From positions 108,716 to 172,715 of the forward strand of contig JBMNEZ010000001.1 of the NCBI GenBank assembly GCA_050949045.1: 64,000 bases of DNA, in the 5' to 3' direction. Shown here in pieces: positions 1 to 33,963 of the stretch. The position numbers were made by a program, and so were the translations under genes. The notes under the pieces were generated by a model. It searched no databases and was not told the DNA's origin. It saw only the letters and a list, made by a program, of their open reading frames with translations. The stretch is from Candidatus Izemoplasmatales bacterium (GTDB lineage Bacteria > Bacillota_I > Bacilli_A > Izemoplasmatales > Hujiaoplasmataceae). Position 1 is the stretch's first letter. The number at the start of each line of letters is the position of its first letter.

Positions 1-3000
1 CTGTGTTTTTCTCTTTTGCTTCTAGGAGCGGGGAGCGTATATGCGACAGTATACAATCACCATTTCTATGGCGAAGACTGGACATGGAGTCCTTCTGCTA
101 AAAGTGCTGAAGAAGCCAAGGCCAATGCAATTAAGGTTGCAGAGCAAATCGCTGCTGAAGGCCAGGTACTTTTAAAGAATGAGAATAGTACCTTGCCTCT
201 TAGTGGAGATGAATGGCTGACTGTTTTTTCTACTACCAGCACAAAAGATTTAGCTTCTTACATTTCCGGTATAGAGGCTGGAGGCTTTAAGGTACACAGT
301 ACGACCTCAACCGATGTAAGCAAGTACACTCCAAGCGATATGCGCGCACATAGTTCCAGCGATGTAGCTGTAATTATTATGAGTGGAGAAGCTGAATCAA
401 AAGGCGATTTCTTTAGTCCTGGTCCTTTTGGTGGCGGTGGTGGAGAAGGCGGATCTACAGCTAGCCTTGTCGAACCGGAAGACAATAAGGATGCTTATGG
501 CAATACTTACAAGCTTCCTAGCGGAAAAGATTTCGTACACAGGTTTTCTCCGATGAAAAAGGTAGGAGAAGAGACAGTAGCATACAAACACAGTTTACAA
601 CTTCAAAACAAAGATGAAGAAATTATTAAGTATGCTAAAGACAATTTTAAAACAGTCATTGTTTTGCTTCAAAACGATATACCTACCGAAATCGGCTCGC
701 TTAAAATTGATCCTGGCATTGATGCCATTCTACTCGCGGGGCGTTTAGGAAATTACGGACATGAGCAAATAGGCTATGTTTTAAACGGCTCAGTTAACCC
801 CTCTGGGAGAACGGTAGACCTTTGGGCATGGGATCATTCAGGGCGTCCTTCTTGGTTCAACGACGGGAATACTAACAATATTTTCAGAAATGCAACTCAA
901 GAAAGCGAATCAGATGTTTCGAATATGGGAATCACATCAGCGTTCCGTGTTGGTGAAGGATCTATATATTATGAGAGATCAGAGGCGTATTCTAAAGCCG
1001 ATGATGAAACATATCCATATTATAAGAGAAGACCGCACGCTACAGGTGAAATTACTCCTCACGTATTTACTGTGCAGTATGAAGAGGATATTTACACTGG
1101 ATACCGTTACTATGAAACCGCCGCAACAGAGGTAGCTTTGGGCAATTATGCCGCAGCTGGTTACGGCATCGACGGCGAAGCTTTTTATTACGATTCGGTT
1201 ATCTATCCTTTCGGTTACGGGCTCAGTTATACCTCATTTGAATGGGAAGTAGTGAGTTCAGACCTTAGCGAATGGGCCAGAGTTTTGGCTTCTGAAAGCT
1301 CAAGCATCAATTTCCAAACCGGCGAAATAACCGTTAAGGTAAAAGTTACCAACGTTGGTTTGGTACCGGGCAAGGACGTAGTGGAAATTTACGGACACGC
1401 ACCATATTACAAGAATGGTGTTTCTAAAGCGGAACACGTACTTGTAGGCTTTGAAAAAACTGGAATAATCCAGCCTGGTAAATCGCAGGTAGTTACTGTT
1501 TCTGTAAACGTTCAAGATCTTGCTTCGTATGATTACCTTGATGCTAACGGAAACGGCAACACAGGCTATGAGCTTGATAAAGTCGCAGATGCCGACTCAA
1601 AAGGCAACCCCTTACATGATAGCACTGGTAAATACCAGCTCCGTCTCATGAAAAACAGCCATGAATATGGCAATGACGATGCGGCTGAAATGACGATTGA
1701 TCTTGCTAGCCCTTCGAGAGATTATTTCCTTAAACTCGATGACTTCACAGGAAACAGCGTCGACAATTTGTTCTCCGGAAAAGACATAAACAACACACTC
1801 GGATATGATCCAGGGACAGGTAAAACGCTGGTTGAAGAAGGCAAAATGACGATCCTAACCCGTGCAGATTTTGCAGGAACTTGGCCTCAGGCTGCGGGAA
1901 CCACCACAGGTCCTAGCGGCGAAGAAAAAGGCTGGGATCTCGTAAGAAGCGACGAATATTACACTATGATTTCTGAGTTCGCTGATTACAACGGAGAAAA
2001 TTGGCAAGAGTTTTATAAGATAGTAAATAACGTAGAAACAATTCCTGCTGAAATAACAAATGAAGATAAAGCCGGTTTTGCTTGGTCTATTGACGCAGCA
2101 GAATTTGCAACGCTTACAACGGCTAAATACACACCTGAAGGCGGCACAGAACAAACAATTAATTGGGTACAAAGAGACCCAGCTGCCAATCTTTCTGAAC
2201 TTCAAGAAAGCGATGATTGGCTGTGGTTTGCTGACATGATCAAGTATGAGTACAATGACGGTGGTATTGGCACATACATGTGGACCAAGTTTATGAACCA
2301 GCTGACCTACAACGAGATGGTAGAATGGGTTACTAACGGTGGCAGAAGGACATCGGCCATTGATTCAGTAGGTAAGAGAGCGGCGGAATATGTGGACTCC
2401 AGTATAAGAATGGGAGGCACAAACCAAATTAGTTATGGTTATAATTCTGTTTCTAGCCGCACTTGGAATAAGGAACTTGCAAAGAAGAGAGGCATATGCA
2501 TCGGCGAAACTGCTCTCTTTGATGGAAAAGAGGCATGGTATGCACCGGCATGCGACTTACACCGTAGCCCGTTTGCAGGTCGTAACGACGAGTATTGGTC
2601 AGAAGACGGTTTCTTCTCAGGCTGGATGGCAGGCAGCGTGCTTGCGGGCACTCAGTCCACAGGAGTAATTTGTACCATCAAGCACTTTGCTCTCAATGAA
2701 AGCGAGAACATGAGACAAAGCTTACATACATACCTTTCTGAACAAACTTTCCGTGAGCTGTATCTACCCGCATTCAAAATTTGTATGCAAGAATGCGGTG
2801 CACAAGGTGTAATGACTGCATATAACTGTATTGGTGATATGCACGCATCTTCAGCTTACAATTTCCTTGTTGGTATGACCGAAAAAGAATGGGGCTTCGA
2901 CGGCTTCAATATTTGTGACGCTGCCGATCCTTGGAAAGACTTCTACACTCATGACATGAGTCTCCGCTCAGGCGGGACGATGTTCCTATGCGATTGGAGA

Positions 3001-4152
3001 GCATCCAAAGAATATACTCCCGGTGATAAAGGGAACCTTGTTCAACTTTATCCTACTGGTGTATATAACGTAACTGATAACAAAGTCTATGTTAGAGAAA
3101 ACGGTCAAGTAAAAGATTCTCCTGTAACGGTAGAATCATACACCAGCTGGTATTGGCTGCGATATCAAGTAATGCGTTCACTGTTTGTGGAAGCAAACAG
3201 CAATATCGCCAATAACGGCCTTAAACTTGACAACTTCAAGGATGCTACCTTGGCTGATGGAGCACAAGCGGTGGCCTATACAGCTAATATTGGGCTTGAA
3301 GGCGCAGATGCTTCTATTAGTACTTACACAGTAACTAGCGGCGCATTACCCAAAGGCTTATCAATTTCTAACGCCGGTGCGGTTACAGGCACTCCCACCG
3401 AAGCAGGCGAGTTCACATTTAAGGTTAAATTCGTAAACGGATACTGGATTACAAAAGAAGCTACTTTCAATTTAACTGTGACCCCTTGCTTTACGATTGG
3501 TAGCGAAACTGAATTGAACGCTTTAGAAGTTGGCGCTGCTTTTGAAGGCTATATTGAATCAGAAGTAATTAAGATTGATGATACCTATACTTCCATAACA
3601 TATGAACTTGCTCAAGGAAGCGCACTGCCCGAAGGGCTTACACTTTCAAAAACCGACGGCTTGATTTCGGGTACGCCTACGGTTCCGGGAACTTATAGTG
3701 TTACGTTTAATATAACACCTAAAAAAGCATCATCCGGCGGTGGTGGCGGCGGCTTCCCATGGGGTCCACGTCCAGGCAGCAGTTCAACTGTTTACAATTA
3801 CACGGTCACTTTCGTTGTAACCGGAGATCCAATTGTTGAACCTAGCGGTCCCTTCTTCAGAATTGTTGATGGATTTGTTGAATATTCTGAAGATAACGAA
3901 ACTTGGGTACAAGTAATTGAGGTATCCGAACTGCAAGGCGACAAGGGCGACAAGGGCGACAAGGGCGATAAAGGTGACAAGGGCGACAAGGGCGATGCTG
4001 GCGCAGCTGGTCCTGCCGGTCCTGCCGGTCCTGCTGGAAAAGATGCAGAACCGGTAAGCGGATGCGGAAGCTCGCTAACCGGAACCGGAATCCTCGTTAC
4101 CGGATTGCTGTCTCTCGGAGTACTATTCTTAAAACGCAGGAAGTCTGATTAA
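1..4152 (+). CDS. Giant secreted GH3-family glycosidase A (5'-partial): permuted GH3 core, 2 He_PIG-type Ig domains, collagen-like stalk, Cys-containing C-terminal sorting signal
   Basis: Frame 1 is open from nt 1 (LCFSLLLLGAGSVYA/T looks like the end of a signal peptide), so the real start lies upstream and the track's TTG at 16 is internal. GH3 motifs occur in reversed order. First LLKNENSTLPL and NPSGRT (alpha/beta-sandwich domain). Then [12 protein letters not shown] and GKDVVEIY (Fn3-like). Then HRSPFAGRNDEYWSEDG, KHFALNESE and WGFDGFNICDA (barrel domain). Two LP.GL...G.(V/I)(T/S)GTPT units, (G-X-Y)12, and the terminus PVSGCGSS + TM + KRRKSD. Confidence 0.85.
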   Translation: MCFSLLLLGAGSVYATVYNHHFYGEDWTWSPSAKSAEEAKANAIKVAEQIAAEGQVLLKNENSTLPLSGDEWLTVFSTTSTKDLASYISGIEAGGFKVHSTTSTDVSKYTPSDMRAHSSSDVAVIIMSGEAESKGDFFSPGPFGGGGGEGGSTASLVEPEDNKDAYGNTYKLPSGKDFVHRFSPMKKVGEETVAYKHSLQLQNKDEEIIKYAKDNFKTVIVLLQNDIPTEIGSLKIDPGIDAILLAGRLGNYGHEQIGYVLNGSVNPSGRTVDLWAWDHSGRPSWFNDGNTNNIFRNATQESESDVSNMGITSAFRVGEGSIYYERSEAYSKADDETYPYYKRRPHATGEITPHVFTVQYEEDIYTGYRYYETAATEVALGNYAAAGYGIDGEAFYYDSVIYPFGYGLSYTSFEWEVVSSDLSEWARVLASESSSINFQTGEITVKVKVTNVGLVPGKDVVEIYGHAPYYKNGVSKAEHVLVGFEKTGIIQPGKSQVVTVSVNVQDLASYDYLDANGNGNTGYELDKVADADSKGNPLHDSTGKYQLRLMKNSHEYGNDDAAEMTIDLASPSRDYFLKLDDFTGNSVDNLFSGKDINNTLGYDPGTGKTLVEEGKMTILTRADFAGTWPQAAGTTTGPSGEEKGWDLVRSDEYYTMISEFADYNGENWQEFYKIVNNVETIPAEITNEDKAGFAWSIDAAEFATLTTAKYTPEGGTEQTINWVQRDPAANLSELQESDDWLWFADMIKYEYNDGGIGTYMWTKFMNQLTYNEMVEWVTNGGRRTSAIDSVGKRAAEYVDSSIRMGGTNQISYGYNSVSSRTWNKELAKKRGICIGETALFDGKEAWYAPACDLHRSPFAGRNDEYWSEDGFFSGWMAGSVLAGTQSTGVICTIKHFALNESENMRQSLHTYLSEQTFRELYLPAFKICMQECGAQGVMTAYNCIGDMHASSAYNFLVGMTEKEWGFDGFNICDAADPWKDFYTHDMSLRSGGTMFLCDWRASKEYTPGDKGNLVQLYPTGVYNVTDNKVYVRENGQVKDSPVTVESYTSWYWLRYQVMRSLFVEANSNIANNGLKLDNFKDATLADGAQAVAYTANIGLEGADASISTYTVTSGALPKGLSISNAGAVTGTPTEAGEFTFKVKFVNGYWITKEATFNLTVTPCFTIGSETELNALEVGAAFEGYIESEVIKIDDTYTSITYELAQGSALPEGLTLSKTDGLISGTPTVPGTYSVTFNITPKKASSGGGGGGFPWGPRPGSSSTVYNYTVTFVVTGDPIVEPSGPFFRIVDGFVEYSEDNETWVQVIEVSELQGDKGDKGDKGDKGDKGDKGDAGAAGPAGPAGPAGKDAEPVSGCGSSLTGTGILVTGLLSLGVLFLKRRKSD
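3937..4044 (+). repeat. Collagen-like (G-X-Y)12 tract; first six triplets are a 9-bp GGCGACAAG-type tandem repeat
   Basis: In-frame [36 protein letters not shown] read directly from the sequence. Confidence 0.9.
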
Positions 4153-4283
4153 CAAAAGAAACAAGCAATAAAGATTTTAAGACAATAGAAAGAATCAATT
4201 AAGCAGGCGGATATGTTGGGATTATTCTTTAATGCGCGGTAAAATATCGTTGTGATAAAGAATATCCCAACATTATCCGTTAT
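3967..4283. repeat. Arm A of a 317-bp near-identical inverted repeat (partner 21825-22141)
   Basis: The reverse complement of 21825-22141 aligns base for base (x+y=26108). I found 2 substitutions by eye. The repeat covers the last collagen triplets, the sorting signal, the stop codon and 131 bp of intergenic DNA including a hairpin. Confidence 0.9.
4213..4273 (+). promoter_or_regulatory. Intercistronic stem-loop (18-19 bp stem, 24-nt loop) between giant GH3 A and its lipoprotein gene; possible partial terminator or RNA-stability element
   Basis: ATGTTGGGATTATTCTTTA (4213-4231) pairs with TAAAGAATATCCCAACAT (4256-4273) with one bulged T. There is no clean T-tract after it. Confidence 0.45.
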
Positions 4284-4311
4284 TGTCAAATATTTGGAGT
4301 AAGTGTAAATA
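4283..4311 (+). promoter_or_regulatory. Candidate sigma-A promoter for lipoprotein A / GH3 A'
   Basis: TTGTCA, 17-nt spacer, TAAATA, located ~70 nt upstream of the ATG at 4380. Confidence 0.3.
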
Positions 4312-4379
4312 TTGTTTGAAAAAGCATTATTATGTTTGTATGCGACTATGTAAACGACAAAATAAATGTGAGGAAATCT

Positions 4380-5810
4380 ATGAAACAAAAAAAGATGGCA
4401 ACAACGCTCTTATCGTTTTTTCTGCTTTTTGTATTAGCATTGACCGTAGCTTGCACGAATTCTACGACGACGCAGCTTAGCATTACCTTTGATTTGAACT
4501 ATGAAAATGCTACTAGTCTGACGCAAAAAGTTTCTTACGGCGAATATCCCACAAAACCTGCTGATCCTCAAAGAGCAAAGTACGCCTTTTTAGGCTGGTA
4601 CAGTGATAAAGATTTCCAACAGGAAGCAGATTTTGGCCAAGCCATTTCTACCAATGTAACATTTTATGCAAAATGGGAACTAAGACAAGTAACAGTTATT
4701 TTTGATTATAACTATCCCGGCTCGGCTTCATCTAACCTTGATATAGACATTGGCGGTAATGCATCACGTCCGAAATCGCCCACGAGAGAAAACTACTTGT
4801 TTATCGGCTGGTTTACCGATGCCGAAGGAAATGATGAATTCGATTTTGATATTACCCTAATGGAAGACATTACTGTTTATGCAAAGTGGGAAGAGGTAAA
4901 TAATTCTGTTCACGAGCATGTCGATGCGGATAATGACAATATATGCGATGAATGCGGGGAACCGATTTCTGCTCATGAGCATATTGATGCGAATAATGAC
5001 AATATATGTGATGAATGCGGTAAAAAAATTGACGATAACATTATAACGTTAACATATTTTTGGAATTATGAAGGTGCTCCTGATAATGGAGTGTATGACA
5101 CAATTTATATGACCAAGAATAGAAAACCAAGCAAAATTAAAGCCAATCGGGATGGTTATTTTTTCTACGATTGGTTTACCGACCAAGAACTTACAAACAG
5201 GTTTGACATAAATGAAAGAGTAAATGAGGATATGACTTTGTATGCGTGCTGGTATTCAATTTACACCTTTGAAGCAGAGTATACATATCTTGAAGAAATG
5301 GAAGGTCTAGGATATTCGGGTGATGCGTCTGGACTTAATGTGATAGAGCCTGATCATTACTCAATGAATGCCAGCAACGGCTATTATGTTGGCTGGCTGT
5401 TTAATCCCGGACTTACAATAGAGTTCAACTTGACTTGCTCCGAGAGTACGGATACTGCTCATCTGGCGCTGAGGCTCAGCGCAGAGTTTCAGGATCTGAT
5501 ACTTAATTGGAAAGAGTTTACCGTTCAGGTGAATGGCACTAATTTGGTGTATGACGATATTTATTTTCTCAATGTTCCTGATGGTTCGGCAGATACAAAA
5601 CGTCCATTTACTACGCACATCGTATCTAATAGAGTAACCCTTAACGAAGGTGAAAATGTTATTAAACTGATAGTAAGCAACGAAAACAAGGGCGAGGGCG
5701 GCACAATGAGGGCTTCTGCGCCTATGGTAGACTGCATAATAATTTATTCTGACGCTCTAGTTGAATGGGGCGAAGGTTATCCCTTGACCGATAATCTCGA
5801 TGGCAGATAA
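4380..5810 (+). CDS. Surface lipoprotein A: Listeria-Bacteroides (InlB B-type) repeats plus C-terminal CBM6/35-like beta-sandwich
   Basis: I prefer the start at the second in-frame Met (GAGGAA, 5 nt, ATG). Signal peptide MKQKKMATTLLSFFLLFVLALTVAC with a lipobox Cys. Three F.GW(Y/F).D...F......(V/I)T.YA.W repeats. C-terminal YTFEAEY...VQVNG...LNEGENVIKL...VDCIIIY. Confidence 0.8.
   Translation: MKQKKMATTLLSFFLLFVLALTVACTNSTTTQLSITFDLNYENATSLTQKVSYGEYPTKPADPQRAKYAFLGWYSDKDFQQEADFGQAISTNVTFYAKWELRQVTVIFDYNYPGSASSNLDIDIGGNASRPKSPTRENYLFIGWFTDAEGNDEFDFDITLMEDITVYAKWEEVNNSVHEHVDADNDNICDECGEPISAHEHIDANNDNICDECGKKIDDNIITLTYFWNYEGAPDNGVYDTIYMTKNRKPSKIKANRDGYFFYDWFTDQELTNRFDINERVNEDMTLYACWYSIYTFEAEYTYLEEMEGLGYSGDASGLNVIEPDHYSMNASNGYYVGWLFNPGLTIEFNLTCSESTDTAHLALRLSAEFQDLILNWKEFTVQVNGTNLVYDDIYFLNVPDGSADTKRPFTTHIVSNRVTLNEGENVIKLIVSNENKGEGGTMRASAPMVDCIIIYSDALVEWGEGYPLTDNLDGR
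4911..5036 (+). repeat. 2 x 63-bp tandem repeat encoding HEH(V/I)DA.NDNICDECG
   Basis: HEHVDADNDNICDECGEPISA followed by HEHIDANNDNICDECGKKIDD, read in frame. Confidence 0.85.
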
Positions 5811-5826
5811 TTGAGGAGAAGTGCTA

Positions 5827-8769
5827 ATGATTTTTAAACGCTTATTAGAAAAAAAACCATCGCGTTTTTGGTTTATATTCACGGTTATTATCAGCGTATT
5901 AATGATTGCAATCAATGCTGTCGCCATTTATTGGAGCGGTATAATCAGCATTGCATTACGCGGTGATATAGCGCACAAGGCGGAAAATGCCGAGGATGCA
6001 GTGGTGTATTACGAAAAAAGCACCTCAAGCAAGGATGAAGCTAATGCCCAAGCGCAAAGCATTACGCAAAGGATTGCCGAAGAGGGCTTTATTTTGTTGA
6101 AAAACGACAACGCCTTGCCTTTGAAAAAATCTGCGCAAGTGTCCGTCTTTGGCAAAAACTCTGTTAATCTCGTTTATGGCGGCTCGGGCTCGGGTGGTGG
6201 CGACGCTACGCTTCCAAAAAAGACGCTTTATGAAAGTCTTACATCACAGGGGATTGTTTTTAATCCAGTACTGAAAGCGTTTTACGAGGATAACACTCTA
6301 TCGGGACCCGGTAGAGAAAGTAATTCCGGCGACTTAGACAGTGGCGATACAGTCACTATTGGAACTGGAGAAACGCCACAAAGCAGTTATACCAACACTG
6401 TCAAGAACAGTTATGCAGATTATGCGGACGCGGCCATTGTCGTTTTTTCAAGAGTTGGCGGCGAAGGCTTTGATTTGCCTATGGTAGGCGCCAACGGCGC
6501 AAGGCATTATCTTGATTTAGATACAAATGAAAGAGACTTGCTTGAAAGTGTTTGTGCATCTGACTTTGAACATGTAATTGTTGTTCTCAACACTTTAAAC
6601 ATAATGGAAACAGGCTTTTTAAATGAATATGACGGAAAAATAGATGCCTGTATTTGGATTGGAGGACCAGGTTCAACAGGGATTATGGCCTTGGGGAGAA
6701 TACTTGACGGTACTGTTACTCCTTCAGGCCATACAACCAACACATGGCCCTATGATTTTAAAAAAGATCCTACTTGGAATAATTTTTCTGAAAGAGGAAT
6801 ATCAAAAGGTGACATCTATTTTAACACCGAAACGAACAAAAACACAGCGTATAACTACGTAAATTATGAAGAAGGAATTTATGTCGGTTATCGTTATTAT
6901 GAGACGCGCGCTGCACAGGAACGTGAAAAAAACGGAAACGATAATTGGTATATAGAAAACGTTGCATTTCCATTCGGTTATGGGTTAAGTTACACCACTT
7001 TTAAATGGGAATTGACAAATAGTCAAAGCATAGATGGTGTTAAAATAAATAAGAATGGAAATTACTCAGTAACAGTCAATGTAATTAATACAGGTTCTTA
7101 TAAGGGCAAGGAAGTAGTTCAAATGTATGCAAAACTTCCTTATACAGCAAATGGTGTAGAGAAACCTTATGTGGTTTTGTGCGGTTATGCAAAAACAGAT
7201 ATGCTGTACCCTACCGCTGAAAAAGCAATTAATGCAGAAGAGGCAGCGGGAAATAAAAAGCCAAATTCCCAAAAAATCACGATCACGTTTTCGCCTTATG
7301 ATATCGCTTCTTACGATTACAGCAAAAAAAGCGGTCACGAAGGATACATAATTGAAAGTGGTGCTTATGAGCTCTTGTTGTGCAGCGATGCACACACAAG
7401 CAAGTTTTCTGTGCCGTTTAGTGTCGAAGATGACATTGTTTACGAAAACGATCCCATAACAAATACAAGAGTAGTCAACAGATACACCAATTGCGCAGAC
7501 AGTGCTTTCAATTCGGATACGATGATTGCGGACTTCCAAATGAGCAGAAATGACTTATCTATCCTACCGGATGCGTATCAGGACGCCGACAGACAAGTTA
7601 CAACTGAGTTTATCAACTTAATTGCAGACTTAACGCATAATAATCCAAACGCCGCCGGTATTACTGAAATGCCTAAACAAGGTAAGGTTGCAACAATGGA
7701 TTTGGCGGGAGTGTTACAATATGACGCGGCAACCCAGACTTACTACGCAAACTACGATGACAATGCGAGTTGGGATGTTATTCTAGATGCTGTTTCTATC
7801 AACTCCATGCTAAATATGTATAACACCGCTGCATTTAAAACTAACAAGATCGATAACATTAACAAGCCTCAGACACTCGAATCCGACGGACCTGTGGGAT
7901 GGTGTAATTTCATTTCGCTTACTGATCCAACTTGGAAAGGAAACAATGTTTATACCTCACAGGTTGTTATGTCCGCAACATGGAATGTCGATTTAATCGA
8001 GGAAATGGGCAAATGCGTAGGGGAAGAAGGCTTATGGGGCGCAGTTAACTCCGATGGTCGCCCTTACAGCGGCTGGTATGCGCCTGGAGTGAATATCCAT
8101 CGCTCGCAATTTGGCGGTAGAAACTTTGAGTATTTTTCTGAAGATAGCTATTTGACAGGCACAATGGGCGCAGCGGAAATAAAAGGCTGCCAGTCAAAGG
8201 GCGTTTATTGCTATGTGAAGCATTTTGCGGTAAACGAACAGGAAACTCATCGAATGGGGGCCTGCAACTGGCTTACCGAGCAGGCTTTGCGTGAACTGTA
8301 TCTAAAACCGTTTGAGATAGTGGTCAAGCAGGGAAAAACAAGAGCCATGATGTCCAGCTTTACACGTATAGGAACAAGATGGACAGGCGGAGATTATAGG
8401 CTTTTGACAGAGATATTACGTGACGAATGGGGATTTAGAGGCACAGTTATTTGCGATTACAATGCGACAAGCAATTTTATGAATTGTAGACAAATGGTAT
8501 ATGCAGGCGGAGATTTAAATCTTTGTTCCTCCATTAGTAAGCAATGGAATGACTTTGACAGTACATCTGCCGTAGATGTAACAATGTTGAGAAACGCAAC
8601 AAAAAATGTGCTCTATACTGTGGCCAACTCAAACGCTATGAATAGTCTAAGCTATTATTACACGCTCGCTACATGGAAGATTTGCCTTATTGTGGCAGAT
8701 GTTTTGACTGTGTTGGGTCTTGCAGTATGGGGAATTCTAGCCATTCGCAAATCACGTAAAATGCTTTAA
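5827..8769 (+). CDS. Doubly membrane-anchored (N- and C-terminal TM) permuted GH3 glycosidase A'
   Basis: I prefer the ATG at 5827 (GAGGAG 8 nt upstream) over the track's GTG at 5821. N-terminal TM FWFIFTVIISVLMIAINAVAIYW. Motif order: LLKNDNALPL, VGGEGFDL, TPSGHT, then [12 protein letters not shown] and GKEVVQMY, then SDGPVGW, HRSQFGGRNFEYFSEDS, KHFAVNEQETHR, WGFRGTVICDYN. C-terminal TWKICLIVADVLTVLGLAVWGILAIRKSRKML. Confidence 0.85.
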   Translation: MIFKRLLEKKPSRFWFIFTVIISVLMIAINAVAIYWSGIISIALRGDIAHKAENAEDAVVYYEKSTSSKDEANAQAQSITQRIAEEGFILLKNDNALPLKKSAQVSVFGKNSVNLVYGGSGSGGGDATLPKKTLYESLTSQGIVFNPVLKAFYEDNTLSGPGRESNSGDLDSGDTVTIGTGETPQSSYTNTVKNSYADYADAAIVVFSRVGGEGFDLPMVGANGARHYLDLDTNERDLLESVCASDFEHVIVVLNTLNIMETGFLNEYDGKIDACIWIGGPGSTGIMALGRILDGTVTPSGHTTNTWPYDFKKDPTWNNFSERGISKGDIYFNTETNKNTAYNYVNYEEGIYVGYRYYETRAAQEREKNGNDNWYIENVAFPFGYGLSYTTFKWELTNSQSIDGVKINKNGNYSVTVNVINTGSYKGKEVVQMYAKLPYTANGVEKPYVVLCGYAKTDMLYPTAEKAINAEEAAGNKKPNSQKITITFSPYDIASYDYSKKSGHEGYIIESGAYELLLCSDAHTSKFSVPFSVEDDIVYENDPITNTRVVNRYTNCADSAFNSDTMIADFQMSRNDLSILPDAYQDADRQVTTEFINLIADLTHNNPNAAGITEMPKQGKVATMDLAGVLQYDAATQTYYANYDDNASWDVILDAVSINSMLNMYNTAAFKTNKIDNINKPQTLESDGPVGWCNFISLTDPTWKGNNVYTSQVVMSATWNVDLIEEMGKCVGEEGLWGAVNSDGRPYSGWYAPGVNIHRSQFGGRNFEYFSEDSYLTGTMGAAEIKGCQSKGVYCYVKHFAVNEQETHRMGACNWLTEQALRELYLKPFEIVVKQGKTRAMMSSFTRIGTRWTGGDYRLLTEILRDEWGFRGTVICDYNATSNFMNCRQMVYAGGDLNLCSSISKQWNDFDSTSAVDVTMLRNATKNVLYTVANSNAMNSLSYYYTLATWKICLIVADVLTVLGLAVWGILAIRKSRKML

Positions 8770-12242: not shown

Positions 12243-13046
12243 ATGGCAAACTTGATTAAACACAAGAAAATCTTGATAATTCTCACATCATTATTCATTT
12301 TGGTGATCCTGGCGAGCCAATTTTTGCGATTGACGTTCTTTACCGATGATCTGACAAAGAAAATGGCCAATGATATTTCTATTAGGCTGGGCATGGGATT
12401 GATATTCTTGTTTATGATGTATTACATGGGGTATTGTCTTTTCAAAAAACCCGGGAAATCGTGGATACAATTACTTTTTGTTTTGATTCCGGGTTTATTA
12501 ATATCCATAAACAACTTTCCGATAAGCGCTTATTTGTCATCGCGAACCACTTTAACCGAGCCAATCCATACTGTCTTTTTTTATGCGGTTGAGTGTTTGG
12601 CAATCGGCTTTTTTGAAGAAACGGTTTTTCGAGGAGTTATTCTGTTGGTTTTGTTACAGAGGTTGCCGCAAACCAAGCGCGGAAGTTTCATGGCGATCAT
12701 TGTTTCCTCGGCTCTTTTCGGCTTGACTCATCTTTTCAATTTGTTTGTTGGGGCGGCAGTTCCAGACACGTTGATTCAAGTGGGATATTCTTTTTTGATG
12801 GGGGCTATGTGGAGTGTGATATATATTGCGACAGAAAACTTGCTGTTCCCCATCCTGCTTCATGCATCCTACAACTTTTTCGGAGAGGTGTTGTTTCGCC
12901 TGGGAACCGTATCAAACCGGTTTGATTTTCCGACCATACTGGTCACTTCCATTTTGGCAGTTTTGGCAATCATGGCATATTCGCTTGTTTTCTGTAAAAT
13001 CAAACAAGAGGATCTTGCCAATATCGGCGCAAGCGATTCCCGGTAA
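12243..13046 (+). CDS. CPBP-family (CAAX/Rce1-like, Abi) glutamic intramembrane endopeptidase
   Basis: All three signature motifs occur in order inside TM helices: FEETVFRG (EExxxR), FGLTHL (FxxxH) and HASYNF (HxxxN). About 7-8 predicted TM segments. GGAGGAAG ribosome-binding site. Confidence 0.85.
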   Translation: MANLIKHKKILIILTSLFILVILASQFLRLTFFTDDLTKKMANDISIRLGMGLIFLFMMYYMGYCLFKKPGKSWIQLLFVLIPGLLISINNFPISAYLSSRTTLTEPIHTVFFYAVECLAIGFFEETVFRGVILLVLLQRLPQTKRGSFMAIIVSSALFGLTHLFNLFVGAAVPDTLIQVGYSFLMGAMWSVIYIATENLLFPILLHASYNFFGEVLFRLGTVSNRFDFPTILVTSILAVLAIMAYSLVFCKIKQEDLANIGASDSR

Positions 13047-19091: not shown

Positions 19092-19628
19092 TTAATCTCC
19101 CATTGCCCCGGCATCTGTTTGCTGATGGTTTTTCGCTTTATCAGTTTTGTAATAGCTGGATTTCTGAATCAAAGCAACAATCAATGTGACTATTATCGCC
19201 ACAAAGGTGCCTATCAGTTTGAAAAAATAACTGCTTGAAAGAACAGGATCCACAGGATCGCCCACAGTGCCCGATACGATTGGATAAAGAATTGTGCCTA
19301 TAAGCGAATATTCGGCGAGTATGCTCATAAAGAAACTGTATATCAGCGCGACAAAGGCGAAATACATGAGAAAACGTTTATAACTCAAGATATCTAAAAT
19401 CATGGGGTTATTAACAAGAAAACTCTCGCCAACGCTTGCGCCGATGGCAATCATAATAAATATGACTGCCAAGATGTCCGCCGCCACGACCTCGCGAGAA
19501 ACGTTTCCGCCGTTAAATTCCGAAGCGCAGTTCAGTGCATACAAGAATAGTGCAACAACCGCAAGCACCAGCGCCAGAACGGATAGATAAAAACTCGTTT
19601 GTTTATAGAACATTTTGATTTTATTCAT
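19092..19628 (-). CDS. Small 4-TM membrane protein of unknown function (module B only)
   Basis: AGGGAGAG ribosome-binding site. Four hydrophobic helices. Stop and start are almost contiguous with GH3 B'. I recognise no family. Confidence 0.55.
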   Translation of the reverse strand: MNKIKMFYKQTSFYLSVLALVLAVVALFLYALNCASEFNGGNVSREVVAADILAVIFIMIAIGASVGESFLVNNPMILDILSYKRFLMYFAFVALIYSFFMSILAEYSLIGTILYPIVSGTVGDPVDPVLSSSYFFKLIGTFVAIIVTLIVALIQKSSYYKTDKAKNHQQTDAGAMGD

Positions 19629-19684: not shown

Positions 19685-21802
19685 TTATCCTCTCTTTACT
19701 CCGTCTTTTAGATAATATTCATAATCAAACATCGTCAACTCGACTGACGAGTAAAGATATATGCAGTCTATGATCGGCGCTTCAGAATGGAAGGTTCCGC
19801 CGTGATTTTTGTTATTGCTGACGAGTAACGTAATTAAGTTGGTGCCTTTCTTGAGCGTCAAGCCTTCAATAATAAAGATGTCTTCAAAGGGCGTTTTGTC
19901 CGTTGACAAGTCGCCAGACTCTACCAAGTTCGCCATCGGCAAGTACATTCCGCCGTATGCCAACCACGTTTTCGGCTCCGCGCCTTCCCACTCGCCGTTA
20001 ACGACTATTTTGAAATCGGTATCTGAAATAAAGTTGTAAAGAGGTCCGCCTTCTTCTTTGGACTTGGCCCCAAAGAACTGGTACGATTCGCTGGAAGCGC
20101 GGATATAAAGCACGGCATCGGTCTCTTCTTCTTCAGCTTCGATCACAAAATCAAGAGAGGCGCCGTAATAATAAAGTTCTCTGACAAAATACCCGTTGCT
20201 GACATTGCCGCCACGGACAAAGGTATGATCCATTATCAATCCCTCTTCGAAGGAGTTGGTCGATGTTCCTTGACCTAGCTTGTCATGAAAATTCACTGCT
20301 TCCGCTTCAAAAGTATACTTTTTGAGCATTTTGCCATATACATTCGTATCTGCGATTAGATTCATGCTCGTACTGAACTTCGTTGTGAAGGCTTTGTCCC
20401 TGTACCAACCTGCAAAGACATAATTAGCTATGACTGGATCTTGAGGGGAGTTGTTCCCTACTGTTCCGTTATATTCCACTTCGACTAAGGCGTGTGAGAC
20501 GTCGCCGGCGCCGATATCATAGTAGTAATTCACTTTGATATCTTCATATTGCACCGCATCTTCAATCCATTTTGCGTAGAGCGTCAGATCACTGACTACG
20601 GGTGTATCCGCTAGAGTAAACTGATTGAGGCATCCGGGCTCGGTAAACCAACCGCCGAATGAATAGCCATCCCGTGCCAGCACTGAGAAATTTTGAATAT
20701 ACTTTTTATACTTGATAGTTTGTTTCGCGGGCTGTTCGGGCGGATTTTCAAAGTTGTAATCAAATTTGATCTCATATTCGCTTAATGTCCAACCGGCATA
20801 AACAGTCAGATCATCGTTGATGCTCGAAAGGTCAGCGAGATGCTCTTGAGGAAGAGGGTCTTCCGAATTGGGATTGGTTTTGATCATGTACCAACCGGCA
20901 AAATCGTGCCCCACGTAGGTCAAGGCGTCTTCTATTGTCTCTGCCTCTGTTTCAATCGAGGTGTTTTTGGCGACCAAATAGCTCAAGTTCAAGCTATCGT
21001 CAAGAACGCCGCCGTTTAGATTGAATGACACATTGTAGGCATTGCGGCTCCAACGCGCATAAATGGTAACATTTGAATCGAGCGGCGTTTCAAAATCAAA
21101 AGGTTCACCGCCGGTCGGCTTGGTATACCAACCGACAAATTCATATTGATCCCTTGTAGGTGCATCTACACTGATTGCTTCGCCCAGTTTTACCGCTTTG
21201 ACGACGGGTGCGGGCGAACCGATATAGTTATAATCTATTGTCAAATATGCTTTTTGTTTTGACCATCCAGCATAAAGAGTAATGTCACTGGATACTGCCG
21301 AATCAAAATCATAGACCTGTGTACATTCTTTGTCTGTATACCAGTTAACAAAAGCATAAGTCTCATCTTCATCGTAAATGGGATTCTCGGGTAAGGCAAA
21401 CACTGAATCTTTTTCGATTGCATATATTTCATCCATCGTCCGGTAATTAAGGAATTTCAAAGTGACGAGGCTTACCGCGTCATTTCTTTGCCATTTCGCA
21501 TAAACGGTAATATTGTCATTCAATGGCTGCAAATGATCATATGCCACCGTTGCATCTTCTTTTTCGCTTAACATCCATCCTACAAAGTCAAAACCTGTAC
21601 GTGAAGGATTGGCGGGAAGAGTGATAGACTGTCCTGCTTCAACGGTGATTTTTGCATAAATTCCCTGATAATTGTCATGAAAAAAGACAGTATGCACTTT
21701 AAGTCTTTCATCTTCGACGGGACGACCACATGCACCGAGGGCACTTATACATAATATCAAGAGAGATATAAACGGGATAAAGAAATATAGTTTCTTATTC
21801 AT
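19685..21802 (-). CDS. Surface lipoprotein B: six Listeria-Bacteroides (InlB B-type) repeats plus C-terminal CBM6/35-like domain
   Basis: I moved the start to MNKKLYFFIPFISLLILCISALGAC (AAGGAG 7 nt upstream). Six (F/Y).F.GW(Y/F)......(V/I/L)T(V/I/L)YA.W repeats. C-terminal YTFEAEAVNF...VVNGE...LKKGTNLITL...IDCIYLY. Confidence 0.8.
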   Translation of the reverse strand: MNKKLYFFIPFISLLILCISALGACGRPVEDERLKVHTVFFHDNYQGIYAKITVEAGQSITLPANPSRTGFDFVGWMLSEKEDATVAYDHLQPLNDNITVYAKWQRNDAVSLVTLKFLNYRTMDEIYAIEKDSVFALPENPIYDEDETYAFVNWYTDKECTQVYDFDSAVSSDITLYAGWSKQKAYLTIDYNYIGSPAPVVKAVKLGEAISVDAPTRDQYEFVGWYTKPTGGEPFDFETPLDSNVTIYARWSRNAYNVSFNLNGGVLDDSLNLSYLVAKNTSIETEAETIEDALTYVGHDFAGWYMIKTNPNSEDPLPQEHLADLSSINDDLTVYAGWTLSEYEIKFDYNFENPPEQPAKQTIKYKKYIQNFSVLARDGYSFGGWFTEPGCLNQFTLADTPVVSDLTLYAKWIEDAVQYEDIKVNYYYDIGAGDVSHALVEVEYNGTVGNNSPQDPVIANYVFAGWYRDKAFTTKFSTSMNLIADTNVYGKMLKKYTFEAEAVNFHDKLGQGTSTNSFEEGLIMDHTFVRGGNVSNGYFVRELYYYGASLDFVIEAEEEETDAVLYIRASSESYQFFGAKSKEEGGPLYNFISDTDFKIVVNGEWEGAEPKTWLAYGGMYLPMANLVESGDLSTDKTPFEDIFIIEGLTLKKGTNLITLLVSNNKNHGGTFHSEAPIIDCIYLYSSVELTMFDYEYYLKDGVKRG

Positions 21803-21824: not shown

Positions 21825-22141
21825 TTAACGGATAATGTTGGGATATTCTTTATCACAACGATATTTTACCGCGCATTAAAGAATAATCCCAACATATCCG
21901 CCTGCTTAATTGATTCTTTCTATTGTCTTAAAATCTTTATTGCTTGTTTCTTTTGTTAATCAGACTTCCTGCGTTTTAAGAATAGTACTCCGAGAGACAG
22001 CAATCCGGTAACGAGGATTCCGGTTCCGGTTAGCGAGCTTCCGCATCCGCTTATCGGTTCTGCATCTTTTCCAGCAGGACCGGCAGGACCGGCAGGACCA
22101 GCTGCACCAGCATCGCCCTTGTCGCCCTTGTCACCTTTATC
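21825..22141. repeat. Arm B of the 317-bp inverted repeat (partner 3967-4283)
   Basis: See arm A. Confidence 0.9.
21835..21895 (-). promoter_or_regulatory. Intercistronic stem-loop, identical copy of 4213-4273
   Basis: Same sequence as the module A hairpin, lying inside the inverted repeat. Confidence 0.45.
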
Positions 22142-25100
22142 ACCTTTAGCACCAGGATCACCCTTAGCACCAGGATCTCCCTTAGCACCAGGATCACCCT
22201 TAGCACCAGGATCGCCCTTGGCACCAGGATCGCCCTTAGCACCAGGATCGCCCTTTTCGCCGGCAGGGCCAGCTGGGCCTTCAATGACACCAAGATTAAC
22301 AACAGTGCCGTCTGAGAAGGTTACGAGCAATTCGCCTTCGTCGTTAATTTCCGTGGAAGCGATGCTGCCGTGTCCTACGACGATGGTGTATTCAGCGGAG
22401 CCTTTAATCCATCTATCAAATATTCCTTGTACGGTCACGGTGAAGGTTCCGATTTCGTCTGTGCTTCCAGTGATGATGCCTGTTTTTCTGTTCAATGCCA
22501 AACCTTCAGGCAGCATTCCGGAGGTAATTTGATAATCAAATATCGTTGCTTTATCTTTGGCGCCCGCAAAGCCAACATCAAGACTGACTGTTTCTTTCGC
22601 ATCGACGATGAATTTGCCGGGAGTCCATTGAGATACGATGATACCGTTTTGAGAATGACCTGCATTTGCATATTCGCTATACATGATCATGGCGCTGTAG
22701 CGAACAATGTACCATTGGTTATTGGAATAGTAAATGTCCTGCGTAGTATCCTGAGTTAGCGCTTCAGCTTCTGCAGGAACGAATTCACCGGCTGCGTGAG
22801 CCGCAATAAACCTATAATAACTTACACTGGTTTCTCCTGTAATCTTAACAAGATCGTTGATATTATAGGCTTTGGTAACGTCGAATTCTTCAAATCTGGA
22901 TGCATCCTCACCACCAAGTGTTTTTCTTCCAATATAGACGCCGCCAAGCGAGCCGGTAAGCTCATTGACATATTCCGGATCCCAACGGCCTGAATAGGTG
23001 TTGTTTGCCGGGGTGCCCAGGTTGGTCGTGTTGTTTCCGCCAGGAGCGTGGTTGTGGCCAGTGCGAAGCATCAGGTCTTCAGAAGCGACATTGGCTTGTG
23101 GCGAGTACATATCGGGATGGAAGAAGAAGTTTGGACGGCCCCATTCCTCGCGTACAAGGATGTTGCACATATTGAAGCTCACCGGGGTAGGAACTGAACC
23201 GATACGGCCAAACGCCGACATCGCACCTTCGCTATTGCCTTCTTGAATCGCAATTTGCCATGGCTTCAAGTAGATTTCTCGCAGTGCCTGTTCTGAAACC
23301 CAAGCAAAGAGGTCACCCGAGTTACGATTGGTTTCTTGGTCGTTCAAGAGCATGTGTTTCAAGTGGCTTGTTACGCCGCGATCTTGAATGCCCTTGACAA
23401 CTGCCTGAGCCATCCAGCCGGCATGGAAACCATCTTGTGAATAGTACTCGTTGTTACGACCTGAGAAAGGAGTCCGATGGAAGTTGATAGCCGGATTGAG
23501 CCATTGTGTTCTCTTGGTGTTCGTATTCAAGTTCTTTAGCAGGCCCATGTTGGCAGTGACTGCCCCTTGTTTGTAGCCAAGCTCAAGATTCCAGGTTGCT
23601 CCGATTGTCGCATTGCAGCACCAGGTGTATGTACCGTTAAAGTTAGTCGGGGAGTCAGCAATACCGCCAGTGGGAATTCCGAGGTTGGGAACAGGGTTAC
23701 CATTGTTACCGCCACTCCAGCAAGCTGTATAGAAGTCGTTCCATGTCCACTGGTTCATGAACTTAAGCCAGACTTGTCTGCCCGTCATGCCGGCAAACTT
23801 GCCTTTGGCGATCATGCTGTCGTCATTGAAAACAATGCCGTTTAACTCACCAAACAGGATCCAATCATCGCCCGCAGCTTCTTTTGCCAAAGCTTGATAA
23901 TCGGTATTTCCTACTTTGTTGGGAATTTGACTCCATCCCTCCATCATGGCGGCAGTAACGTCATAAAGTCCCGCTTGATTGCCAAGATAGCCGTTTAGAC
24001 CTGCATCGCCTATAAATAATTTATCAGAGTATACATAATCACCGGTGTTGGTCTTCGTCTGTAACTCCGCTTCCATCACATCAGCGATATAAGAGGCATG
24101 AGTTACTTCTTCAACGTTGGCATCTTCGCCTGTTTTGATAAGTCTCATCGAAGCTGAGAAGTTTTGGCAATTTGTTCTGGTGTTGAAGGAAGCGCCCACT
24201 GCAATCGCCGCTGTGACTCTGACATTGTTGGTTGTTTCGCCGCCCCAACGAGTCGATTTGTATGTTACAAAGTCGCCTACTTCATAAGCTTGAGTGGCAA
24301 TTCCGTTTGCGATCGGGCCGTTGTCTTTAAAGACAATCGTAGCGATAGTTTTGATGACTTTGTAAATTCTATTACTGTCTACCAGATAAGAATTTAGTGG
24401 AAAATCGCCGTCCACTGAAATTGGTGGAATAGCCTCGGTGTCCTTTGTGGCTTTATAAACCGCTTTACTATCTTCCACTCCAAACTCATCATTAGTTTTA
24501 TAAGCAGTTGATGTGGAGAAGTAAGCATACTCAGGCTTCCATTGATTCAGATCATAATTGTGATAATAATCCATCAAATCCGCAAATGCCTTCGTGACGA
24601 TCAAGCCACCGTCAAAGACGCCGGACAGTGTATCGACTTCCGCTTCATTAAATGGTCCCGCAGCATGATTTGCTTTAAACTTGTAATAACTTACATTAGA
24701 TGTTCCTGTCACTCCAGGTGTTACTGTGGTTATTTTGACAACATCGCCGATCACATAGGCTTTTGTAATGTCGAATTCCGAAAAGCTGGAAACAGGAACG
24801 CCGTCAACCGTGGTGACGGGAGCTTTTGGGAATGTCTGGACCATGTCAGATCTGGAAAGCAACTCTTGTTCTTTACTGAACAACTTGTCGTCATCATCAA
24901 TTACGCCGTCGCCGTTCCAATCCACATCATTATTGCGGAGAGAATTGCTTCTGCCGTTTTCTTTCGAGAAAAGGTTCACAATTTCATTGTCGGAAAAGTC
25001 GTCAAGTGCAAGTTTCGCATCGCCGTTGATTGTCAAAGTAATTTTTGCCGTAGCATTTGTGCAATGCGAGGTGTTGGAGGCAAACAGATTGTATACTCCG

Positions 25101-26566
25101 CCTTCCAACTCAAAGCCCTTGAATCCGTTGCTATTCGCATCGGCATAATCATAAGAAGCCATATCTTGCAAATTAACATCGAGTTTCATAATCTGAAATT
25201 CGCCAGGATTGAGAAGATTTGTCTTTGCATAGGCAACCAGATTTACGGAAGCTTTTTCGATTTCTCCTCTTGTATAAGGAGCCTGTGAATAGATTTCCAC
25301 TACTTCTTTGCCTGCCTCATCACCAGTATTCGTCACTTTGACGATCAGAGAAACCGTCTTAATCTTGGCAGGCGAGAATAATGAAGAACTGATATCCGCT
25401 TCATCAAGTTCACTGTGTGTGATCGACAAGATTTCCGTATTAAAGCTGGCATAAGACAAACCATAGCCGAATGGATAGACGACATTGTCGGCATACCATG
25501 CGTCTGCCTGGGCTAAGCCGCCCGGCGAGCCGGCTTTACTCAATACGCCGTCGACATAATTCAGGTTTCCAGCCAGAATTTCCGCGTAAACGGTCTCATA
25601 ATACTTGTATCCGATATAGATATCTTCGGAATAATCCACACCATGCAGAGAAATCGGGACCGGTTGGCTGCCGTCTTCTCTTAAATATTTGTTGCTGCCA
25701 GCATCATTTTGAACGTTCGCAATGGAGTTGTACCAAGTTGGATCGAGCGAAAAGTCTTTTGGCCACACGTCAACGAGTTTGCCAGAGGGGTTCCACTCGC
25801 CGCTTAACAATTTTGGAATCGCCTTGATCCCATTTGCGCCGGGACGTCCGATATACATAATCGCATCCACTTTATTGTCATTATGAAGATTGTACATCTC
25901 CATTGGAGTGGATGTATTAAGAAGAACGACGACTTTGTCGCAGAGAGCCGCGGCCTTATCGATCATAGCAATTTCCTTTGCTGTAAGCATCAGGAAGTGT
26001 TTGAGATCGTTACCGTCTGAGTTTCTAGCCAAGCGTTTATGTTGCCAACCGCCGATGTTTTCTACTGCATCATTGGCAAGTTCGCTTGTTGCTACAGCAA
26101 GGTCTGATCCTTCACCGCCACCGCGTTTGAGAACCACAACTGCCACATCAGCGAATCCTTCAACATCTTTTGAGGCTGCCCCTGCAGCAGCATCCTCATT
26201 GATCAGAGTTGGATTCACCTCAAACCCATCGGCATCAAGCACGTCGATTACTTTATGGCTACCGCCCTGTAAAGAAGCTGCCGCAGCACCGAATACCGTT
26301 ACGCCTTTGGCTTTGCTAAAAGGCAAGGCGTTATCTTTGTTCTTGAGCAGAACAGAGCCTTCTCCGGTAAGTTGAATATTCAATTCTGCAGCTGCGGCAG
26401 TAGCTTCGTCCTGCGTCTCATAGGTGGGAATCGCAATCCCGCCGTTGGCAGCGTAGGCACGAGAGCCGCTAAACAGGTATGCTGATACCGCAGTCGCAAG
26501 CGCCAAAGTCAAAACCAGCATACATTTTCCAAGTATAAACCCGTTGTTTTTGCTTCTTCCTTTCAT
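21956..26566 (-). CDS. Giant secreted GH3-family glycosidase B (1536 aa): permuted GH3 core with large inserts, He_PIG domain, collagen-like stalk, Cys-containing C-terminal sorting signal
   Basis: AGGAGG ribosome-binding site. Signal peptide ...[11 protein letters not shown]. Motif order: [26 protein letters not shown], then [12 protein letters not shown] and GKEVVEIY, then [18 protein letters not shown] and [31 protein letters not shown], (G-X-Y)24, and the terminus PISGCGSS + TM + KRRKSD. Confidence 0.85.
22064..22279 (-). repeat. Collagen-like (G-X-Y)24 tract including 6 x 18-bp GDPGAK repeats
   Basis: GPAGPAGEK(GDPGAK)x6 [27 protein letters not shown] read in frame on the minus strand. 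Confidence 0.9.
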
Positions 26567-29441: not shown

Positions 29442-29457
29442 CTTAATATTTCAGTTC

Positions 29458-31074: not shown

Positions 31075-31086
31075 GTTAACCTCCGT

Positions 31087-33642: not shown

Positions 33643-33797
33643 AACAGAATACCTCCCATTTACAAATCAAAAGGTGTTATTGCGGAATGCCTGCCATAAC
33701 ATCATTATTAATTGCCGTTTGCGATAACTGTTATCATCAAATCACCTATCACAAATAACCGTAATATGTAATTTTCATTTATTGATTTTATATCATC

Positions 33798-33826
33798 ATT
33801 ATCTAAAATCATTACATTTTTTTCAA
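33798..33826 (-). promoter_or_regulatory. Candidate sigma-A promoter of the GH78-GPH-GH2 operon
   Basis: Minus strand: TTGAAA, 17-nt spacer, GATAAT. This leaves a ~150-nt leader. Confidence 0.45.
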
Positions 33827-33873
33827 TGCCTATTTCCTAAATTATTGGTTTTTAAACGTAATCTTAGCGTAAC

Positions 33874-33905: not shown

Positions 33906-33963
33906 TGCTTTCATTATTCTTATGTAGCATGATTATTTGACTACATAACGGCAGATAGAAAGC

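Follow-up and report, generated by a model that had tools for sequence, protein, structure and literature searches.

In a stretch of 64,000 nucleotides from a Candidatus Izemoplasmatales bacterium (GenBank assembly GCA_050949045.1, contig JBMNEZ010000001.1, positions 108,716 to 172,715 of the forward strand), which we call the window, a set of three genes occurs three times in the same order. Each set encodes a secreted glycosidase of family GH3 (A), a lipoprotein (B) and a second GH3 enzyme that is anchored in the membrane at both ends (C). We found this order, written A-B-(X)-C for the modules that carry an additional small membrane protein X, in about 20 distinct loci of other organisms and given this recurrence the arrangement is more than chance. 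Judged from sequence comparisons and structural models, we consider it rather probable that each module is a conserved, co-inherited and co-functioning surface unit, which harvests sugars from extracellular glycans or glycosides. The parts of the modules and their neighbours are of known kinds (circularly permuted GH3, CBM35-like fold, lipoprotein, CPBP protease). In the literature we found neither a fixed A-B-(X)-C unit nor the B family nor exported permuted GH3 enzymes described, in agreement with a preliminary description of the same DNA that could match the arrangement to no described system. The interpretation given in that description is, as a whole, partly supported by our data.

The Izemoplasmatales, which the NCBI taxonomy places in the Mollicutes, are described as free-living and wall-less, and a cultured relative grows on rhamnose (PMC8397711). 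The lack of a cell wall accounts for the membrane anchoring of all surface parts of the modules.

Architecture of the three modules

The open reading frame (ORF) list and Pfam scans placed the A-B-C order at 1-8769 (+), 26566-16016 (-) and 39577-49716 (+), as had been read from the letters before. The module genes are:

A1, 1..4152, plus strand: secreted permuted GH3 enzyme; 5' end cut by the window edge
B1, 4380..5810, plus strand: lipoprotein with lipobox TVAC, three Flg_new repeats and a C-terminal CBM35-like beta-sandwich (about 5238-5807)
C1, 5821..8769, plus strand: permuted GH3 enzyme with an N-terminal signal-anchor transmembrane (TM) helix and a C-terminal TM helix followed by a basic tail
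A2, 21956..26566, minus strand: secreted permuted GH3 enzyme with an insertion of about 430 amino acids (aa), a He_PIG domain, 24 collagen triplets and a Cys-containing C-terminal signal
B2, 19685..21802, minus strand: lipoprotein with lipobox LGAC, six Flg_new repeats and a C-terminal CBM35-like domain
X2, 19092..19628, minus strand: 178-aa protein with four TM helices, conserved in every type-2 module, where its gene separates B from C
C2, 16016..19090, minus strand: permuted GH3 enzyme with a TM anchor at both ends
A3, 39577..44775, plus strand: secreted permuted GH3 enzyme with eight He_PIG repeats (270-nt tandem units) and the Cys signal ..APITGCASA, followed by a TM helix and RKRQ
B3, 44916..46082, plus strand: lipoprotein with lipobox LIAC, a Thr-rich linker, one Ig-like segment and a C-terminal CBM35-like domain
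C3, 46759..49716, plus strand: permuted GH3 enzyme with a TM anchor at both ends

The preliminary description had the architectures of A, B and C right, but it missed the permuted order of the GH3 domains, the gene X2, the gap between B3 and C3, the wall-less state of the host and the possible connection of the Cys tail with CPBP and Lgt. The A proteins (about 1.4-1.7k aa) start with a signal peptide, of which only the last residues lie inside the window in the case of A1, as this gene starts beyond the window edge. The GH3 part is followed by an Ig-like and collagen-like stalk and by an end in which the motif G-C-[GAS]-[SG] precedes a TM helix and a K/R cluster. In A1, the stalk comprises two He_PIG Ig-like domains and 12 collagen GXY triplets, and the signal reads ..EPVSGCGSS + TM + KRRKSD; collagen repeats are thus present in A1 and A2. 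By our own inference from the GXY repeats, this part of the stalk suggests trimerisation. The C proteins comprise about 1000 aa with one TM helix per end, and the charge distribution (positive-inside rule) puts the enzyme on the extracellular side. For C2, the start was set at MKTFKKLL following the orthologues, 1 nt past the stop of X2, and the ORF tool gives 19114. X2 itself has no family match in Pfam or NCBIfam. Flg_new repeats occur in B1 and B2 and are absent from B3, the N-terminal half of which gave no Pfam match above cut-off.

The B, X and C genes are closely packed (1-56 nt apart), with 10 nt between the B1 stop and the C1 start and 1 nt between X2 and C2. Between B3 and C3 there is a gap of about 650 nt, which contains no ORF of 57 aa or more and is not conserved in related contigs. 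It could not be aligned with the corresponding gap in two of the loci described below (L006 and L007) and thus shows no sign of a conserved RNA or regulatory element. The whole window gave no Rfam matches, and scans for promoters and terminators yielded counts near chance and no operon boundaries beyond a single hairpin downstream of a gene for a 472-aa protein (see below).

Across the three modules the paralogues share 25-47% identity, and the strong divergence noted in the preliminary description was thus confirmed. The 3' ends of A1 and A2 form a 340-nt inverted repeat (3943-4282 vs. 21826-22165) with 96% identity, the arms of which span the last ~210 nt of both genes (collagen end and Cys signal) and ~130 nt downstream. 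Since the two genes are elsewhere only about 30% identical, this repeat indicates a recent gene conversion. The same repeat might also allow the 17.5-kb segment enclosed by its arms to invert.

Two of the module proteins carry peculiar segments. The insertion of A2 (residues ~520-950, between the Fn3-like domain and the barrel) has no Pfam match above cut-off and contains three short 'AY.[IV]GD.V...Y' segments, which are reminiscent of CBM5/12 motifs. In B1, two 'D(A)NDNICDECG' motifs with Cys-x2-Cys spacing lie between the Flg_new repeats (residues ~185-225) and gave weak matches to DUF4428 and double-zinc-ribbon families. The two motifs may build a metal-binding knuckle, here in a lipoprotein outside the cell.

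Pfam coordinates show that all six GH3 enzymes of the modules in the window are circularly permuted: GH3_C comes first, followed by the Fn3-like domain and then GH3_N. A blast-based permutation test was positive for all listed homologues in other loci except L004_C and a fragment in L008. In the 37 aligned A and C proteins the nucleophile Asp ([TC]D[YWM] / HPDMY), the Glu of the GEG motif (with a few motif variants) and the R/K-H sugar-binding motifs are retained, and because of this retention both GH3 enzymes of every module are probably active exo-glycosidases. In GH3 the nucleophile Asp belongs to the barrel and the acid/base Glu, here taken to be that of GEG, to the sandwich. Every NCBIfam equivalog model scored far below cut-off (e.g., 245 vs. 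1300 bits). Among solved structures, C1 and A2 are closest to Thermotoga Bgl3B (2x40) and to two permuted enzymes, 5wug and 5k6l, and the sequence matches to the latter two put the barrel at chain positions ~550-800. GlyA1 (PMC5104943; PDB 5K6L) is the enzyme for which the permuted topology was first defined, and our enzymes share with GlyA1 and with BrGH3A (PMC11233000) the order (alpha/beta)6 sandwich, FnIII and (beta/alpha)8 barrel. In contrast to GlyA1, A and C are predicted to be exported and membrane-tethered, and A carries Ig and collagen stalks in addition; the terms 'signal peptide' and 'transmembrane' are absent from the GlyA1 paper (PMC5104943).

In a neighbour-joining tree, an A clade received 80% and a C2 clade 100% bootstrap support, and C1/C3-type and A3-type enzymes come together in a third group with weak support (A3 and C3 share 47% identity). 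The grouping of the A3-type with the C1/C3-type enzymes points to an 'A' architecture that arose more than once or was distributed by domain shuffling. A and C are therefore not two clean orthologous families, although the bootstrap of the joint group is weak.

Recurrence of the gene order and the B family

The C-terminal domains of B1-B3 (~190 aa) share 26-36% identity and 30 invariant columns, including the Y(T/I)FEAE start. The structural model of this domain (predicted local distance difference test, pLDDT, 94.4) was compared with the PDB by Foldseek, and here the best match was 2wz8, a CBM35 module (E 9e-7, target TM-score 0.69). Further CBM35 matches (2w1w, 2w47, 2w3j, 2w46, 2vzp, 4qb2) were followed by CBM6 and CBM36, and most of the top 20 matches were CBM35 modules or CBM35-containing enzymes. 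At the sequence level, the domain had no Pfam or NCBIfam match and a profile search of PDB sequences was empty. Its modelled fold thus makes the domain CBM35-like and not a demonstrated CBM35 member: it shares the beta-sandwich with CBM35 modules, of which the top-matched ones bind uronic acids, galactan or mannan, but with ~190 aa it is longer than CBM35 (~130 aa). The CBM6/35-like character guessed in the preliminary description was borne out at the level of the fold.

A word-indexed search with the B-domain profile returned 41 proteins, and the three-sequence alignment led to 12 loci in species genomes of GTDB. From these 41 matches the family seemed very rare, an impression that was refuted by an exhaustive hidden Markov model (HMM) search, in which the B domain was present in 60 of the top 150 representatives (clusters at 50% identity), i.e., in at least 60 clusters. 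In all 60 family representatives the domain is C-terminal, and at least 53 of them have a lipobox. B is thus a large lipoprotein family with a CBM35-like domain, which is uncurated in Pfam or NCBIfam.

We read the neighbourhoods of B genes by contig look-up and our own ORF and blastp classification. Every B-domain protein with a neighbourhood read adjoins a permuted GH3 enzyme. The order A-B-(X)-C was present wherever the flank suffices (L004, L007/L029, L010-L013, L015-L020; also L106-L108, the L numbers denoting loci), B-(X)-C was seen at contig ends (L001, L005, L006, L009), and L002 has the order B-C-A. When three B proteins were picked from the exhaustive HMM search, including the weakest B-domain match, all three stood in A-B-(X)-C order. 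The loci come from Izemoplasmatales, Acholeplasmataceae (one complete 1.63-Mb chromosome), 'Bacilli', 'Bacillales', Candidatus Coproplasma and metagenome-assembled genomes (MAGs) of uncultured Clostridia. A lack of synteny in other genomes had been named beforehand as an outcome that would refute the idea of a functional unit; synteny was found across Mollicutes, Bacilli and Clostridia MAGs, and the idea withstood this test.

The B domains of the loci read are 27-74% identical to those of the window. Each window module has its own orthologues elsewhere, and the B sub-types are accompanied by A and C sub-types of their own. Type-2 orthologues in Acholeplasmataceae MAGs share 63-66% (A), 71-74% (B), 60-65% (X) and 78-79% (C) identity with the window proteins, and for type-3 orthologues in metagenome contigs we determined 65-82%. 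With orthologues of its own for each module, the arrangement is conserved rather than recently copied, and in this respect, too, our data agree with what had been proposed.

Proposed function of the modules

The topology signals define the layout of the module products. B is exported and held by an N-terminal Cys lipid anchor, and its CBM35-like beta-sandwich sits at the far end of a spacer (Flg_new or Thr-rich). A has a cleavable signal peptide and is held at its C-terminus via the Ig-like and collagen-like stalk, which makes its GH3 head distal. C is membrane-proximal, with one TM helix per end. A distal stalked enzyme, a membrane-proximal enzyme and a stalked binding lipoprotein had been described before, and this layout follows from the domain order. 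In our working model, B would capture the glycan, and A and C would act as exo-glycosidases from different GH3 sub-clades that cleave off different end residues, probably glucose, xylose or arabinose in beta linkage. The tail of A would probably be converted into a C-terminal lipid anchor (see the next section).

Further steps of the model involve the genes upstream of module 2:

27087..35954, minus strand: LytTR response regulator, GHKL histidine kinase, GH78 alpha-L-rhamnosidase, MFS_2 glycoside transporter and GH2 enzyme, co-directional with module 2

Together with A2, B2, X2 and C2 these genes form, in the order listed, a co-directional minus-strand string of 20 kb (35954-16016). In its upstream part, three enzymes and the regulator lack TM helices and signal peptides. 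GH78 and GH2, as well as two canonical GH3 enzymes encoded elsewhere in the window, carry no export signal. Genes for rhamnose isomerase, kinase and aldolase are located near module 2, and GH78, MFS_2 and rhamnose genes adjoin type-2 modules in L005 and L016-L019 as they do in the window. LytTR two-component systems adjoin modules in L002, L004, L006, L007, L010-L012, L019 and L108. The MFS_2 carrier would take up the trimmed products, and GH78, GH2, canonical GH3 and the rhamnose pathway would complete their breakdown in the cytoplasm, with expression under the control of the neighbouring LytTR two-component system. Candidate substrates are rhamnose-containing plant or algal glycans or glycosides with beta-glucosyl, xylosyl or arabinosyl caps, or beta-glucans such as laminarin.

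Several observations weigh against such a cooperative glycan-harvesting unit. The only surface enzymes predicted are of the exo-type GH3 and there is no endo-acting enzyme; small glycosides or side chains are therefore as likely substrates as polymers, and for these a 'capture' role of B is not required. As the B domain lacks sequence similarity to solved carbohydrate-binding modules, ligand binding is suggested by its modelled fold alone. A proteins without a Cys tail occur in L013 and L106, and that of L108 has a plain TM tail. With B3 and C3 being 650 nt apart, module 3 probably consists of two transcription units. Finally, the spacer lengths of A and B are unmatched across loci (Spearman -0.77, driven by module type). 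We had considered stalks of matched height for A and B and dropped this idea, since the residue counts are anti-correlated and the points cluster by module type; because of this clustering the comparison of stalk heights is uninformative either way.

The unmatched spacers, the gap that splits module 3 and the variable gene order (B-C-A in L002) would also fit a reading in which A and C are independent surface beta-glycosidases and B a general adhesin or lectin that happens to be encoded in the same operon, with neither cooperation nor a complex. We regard this as unlikely, although it deserves to be kept in mind: the B domain was met solely in this context, in every neighbourhood read and over the whole range of 27-74% identity to window B; each B sub-type keeps its own A and C sub-types; and B, X and C lie within 1-56 nt. 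That the modules remodel surface glycoconjugates of the cell itself (lipoglycan or glycolipid of a wall-less organism) instead of harvesting nutrients is very improbable, for although type-3 modules adjoin GT2, a GtrA-like flippase-type protein, UDP-galactopyranose mutase and Lgt (window, L004, L006, L029), the flanks of type-2 modules are catabolic (GH78, GH2, MFS_2, rhamnose isomerase, kinase and aldolase) and three diverged copies per genome fit substrate diversification. The co-functioning surface unit remains the reading we prefer.

It may be compared with three kinds of known systems. A Gram-positive polysaccharide utilization locus (gpPUL) is defined by a degradative enzyme, a transporter and a regulator that are co-located. 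The concept reportedly goes back to Sheridan et al. 2016. The string around module 2 falls under this definition in a loose sense (glycoside hydrolases, MFS_2 and a LytTR two-component system), and with gpPULs it shares the co-location of these parts in a monoderm and surface enzymes that would feed cytoplasmic ones. In contrast to gpPULs, a fixed core of three or four genes, A-B-(X)-C, reappears as one block in different classes, the parts are membrane-anchored and not wall-anchored, and the binding protein is not the solute-binding protein of a transporter. The Sus system of the Bacteroidota (SusC/D/E/F/G) resembles the modules in having a surface lipoprotein with a glycan-binding beta-sandwich beside a tethered glycosidase, an analogy of layout only: here an outer membrane, a TonB-dependent SusC and a SusD fold are all missing, the enzymes are exo-type GH3 and not endo-acting, and SusC/SusD Pfam families were absent from the scanned window ORFs of at least 150 aa. 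Cellulosomes and amylosomes are likewise multi-enzyme surface apparatuses of monoderms with a carbohydrate-binding module. None of the Pfam scans gave a match to cohesin, dockerin or scaffoldin and here assembly, if any, would proceed via the membrane. The labels 'Sus-like' and 'cellulosome-like' of the preliminary description are therefore loose analogies, as the core lacks a dedicated glycan transporter, an endo-acting enzyme and any cohesin or dockerin match.

Further genes lie beside module 3. The two canonical, apparently cytoplasmic GH3 enzymes (50868-53404 and 56947-59408, minus strand) are 99.6% identical over 809 aa and their genes are 6079 nt apart, with a LytTR two-component system and a GT2 gene between them. 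Only one copy, in the order GH3, GtrA-like, GT2, is present in L004, L006 and L029. The pair stems either from a recent duplication with rearrangement or from an error in the assembly. In the same region, at 50157-50882, 55885-56922 and 59640-61752, the window encodes a GtrA-like protein with four TM helices, a GT2 enzyme with a C-terminal TM helix, Lgt and UDP-galactopyranose mutase. This cluster, which is also present in L004, L006, L021, L023 and L029, looks like a set for the synthesis of a surface glycoconjugate (Galf-containing?) beside type-3 modules.

The Cys tails of A, the CPBP protease and Lgt

We compared 21 distinct tails. They share an invariant G-C, which is followed by [GAS][SG][SAT][LIV], a TM helix and a K/R cluster, and extend 23-35 residues past the Cys. 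Two genes of the window encode enzymes that may act on such tails:

12243..13046, plus strand: CPBP / Rce1-like intramembrane glutamic protease with intact EExxxR, FxxxH and H motifs, candidate processor of the A tail
59640..60485, minus strand: Lgt (prolipoprotein diacylglyceryl transferase), whose orthologues in related genomes usually precede the CPBP orthologue directly

The window CPBP gene is located 3.5 kb past C1, and homologues directly follow C in L006 and L007/L008/L029 and lie beside C in L017. The catalytic residues (E-E-R, F-H, H) are invariant in 44 homologues. Curated Mrt models matched the window protein below threshold (MrtJ, 28 bits vs. a cut-off of 75), and its structural model (pLDDT 94.9) had no significant Foldseek match in the PDB, Rce1 included, so that the assignment to CPBP rests on the Pfam score and the motifs. 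When we searched metagenomes with the window CPBP, 80 loci were obtained, 57 of them with sufficient upstream sequence. In 38 of these 57 loci, lgt is directly upstream of the CPBP gene on the same strand, with gaps of -47 to 113 nt.

A GC-rich, Clostridia-type lineage (L054, L059-L061; metagenome JAEIGA01) carries, in this order and with overlaps, genes for FtsK, a secreted Cys-tail protein of ~490 aa (487 aa) that ends in a G-C-G-S tail, LGT and an Rce1-like protease. The 487-aa family comprises 215 clusters from Clostridia MAGs and has no Pfam domain, and in all 120 members listed the C-terminus consists of G-C-G/A-S/A, a TM helix and a basic end. A universal cassette of substrate, Lgt and CPBP in this family had to be abandoned, since the divergent member L110 has neither Lgt nor CPBP adjacent to it.

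These observations suggest that the A tail is turned into a C-terminal lipid anchor: Lgt would lipidate the invariant Cys, and CPBP would then cut off the TM helix. In our estimate the chance that this is correct approaches an even one. A comparable route has been proposed for signals of the myxosortase type. A preprint by Haft describes four Cys-containing signals with CPBP proteases and leaves Firmicutes and Clostridi- unmentioned. Guo, Haft & Wall (2025) demonstrated cleavage by MrtX and called Lgt merely the 'leading candidate' for the lipidation step. Our tails share with these signals the tripartite structure (invariant Cys in a G-C-G/S context, TM helix, basic cluster), and a CPBP with intact catalytic motifs is encoded beside the substrates in some loci, as in the JDVT-CTERM/MrtJ pair. 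They differ in that they come from Mollicutes and Bacillota, remain below the cut-offs of the curated Cys-CTERM models (MYXO-, JDVT-, Synerg- and CGP-CTERM; TIGR03382 reached E = 1 on one tail) and involve no type II secretion step. Moreover, the protease is here co-operonic with lgt, a link which the Haft and Guo papers only hypothesise. More tentatively, and with a probability that we put somewhat below even, the A tails and the tails of the 215 Clostridia clusters may constitute a fifth class of Cys-containing C-terminal sorting signals, widespread in Mollicutes and Bacillota, Lgt-lipidated and CPBP-cut, which would substitute for sortase where there is no wall.

Alternatively, the A tail might be a degenerate LPXTG-type sortase signal or a permanent TM anchor, with the Lgt-CPBP pair serving the maturation of N-terminal lipoproteins. 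We take this as a serious possibility, although it also falls short of an even chance. With the LPXTG_anchor model TIGR01167 (cut-off 15.9 bits), the APETG-C tails of L004_A (25.1), L107 (19.9) and L002 (18.9) pass; the window tails stay just under the cut-off (15.6), the remaining tails gave no match, and across tails it is the G-C that is invariant (all 21), whereas L, P and T are variable. Sortase Pfam families were not among the precomputed annotations of the loci read (whole genomes were not scanned), and the host order, being described as wall-less, would have no peptidoglycan as sortase acceptor. A permanent TM anchor would agree with L108_A, the TM tail of which lacks the Cys, and the isolated Cys-tail protein L110 also speaks for a reading without lipidation. 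A role of CPBP in N-terminal maturation has a precedent in LnsB, a protein of CPBP fold that is required for lipoprotein N-acylation in S. aureus (PMC7387801). LnsB is devoid of the catalytic motifs, unlike the window CPBP and its 44 homologues. In the complete Izimaplasma HR1 genome the lgt-CPBP pair stands beside pgsA and recA, which makes CPBP look like a housekeeping neighbour; its place next to the modules could thus be incidental, the modules having inserted nearby. On the other hand, a separate lineage combines Cys-tail protein, LGT and Rce1-like protease in overlapping genes, which argues against this alternative.

Two further genes complete the description of the window. A 472-aa protein with at least eight TM helices (9312-10730, plus strand) has no Pfam match above cut-off and no NCBIfam match, and its gene is followed by a strong terminator-like hairpin (10750-10782), the only one of the region. 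In L101-L103, which carry an identical CPBP, the same set of genes is found (the 472-aa gene or a fragment of it, GFO oxidoreductase, CPBP, RhaB and RhaA). At 62046-64000 (plus strand), a lipoprotein gene (lipobox LVAC) with internal direct repeats of ~1040 nt runs past the window end; it has no Pfam match.

Taken together, these data suggest that wall-less, free-living relatives of the Mollicutes and some Clostridia may build an extracellular glycan apparatus from membrane anchors alone, namely a lipid at the N-terminus, TM helices at both ends and probably a lipid at the C-terminus. The B family, which accompanies exported permuted GH3 enzymes in every neighbourhood read, provides a new marker for CAZy-type annotation. 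The neighbourhoods of lgt, CPBP and Cys-tail genes fit the model of Guo, Haft & Wall and would extend it to monoderms. If the lipid-anchor reading is true, the lgt-CPBP pair and the substrate-lgt-CPBP cassettes would be the first genomic evidence for the enzyme that lipidates myxosortase-type signals. A conserved lgt-CPBP operon with Cys-tail substrates nearby makes the question of MYXO-CTERM-type lipidation directly testable in simple hosts.

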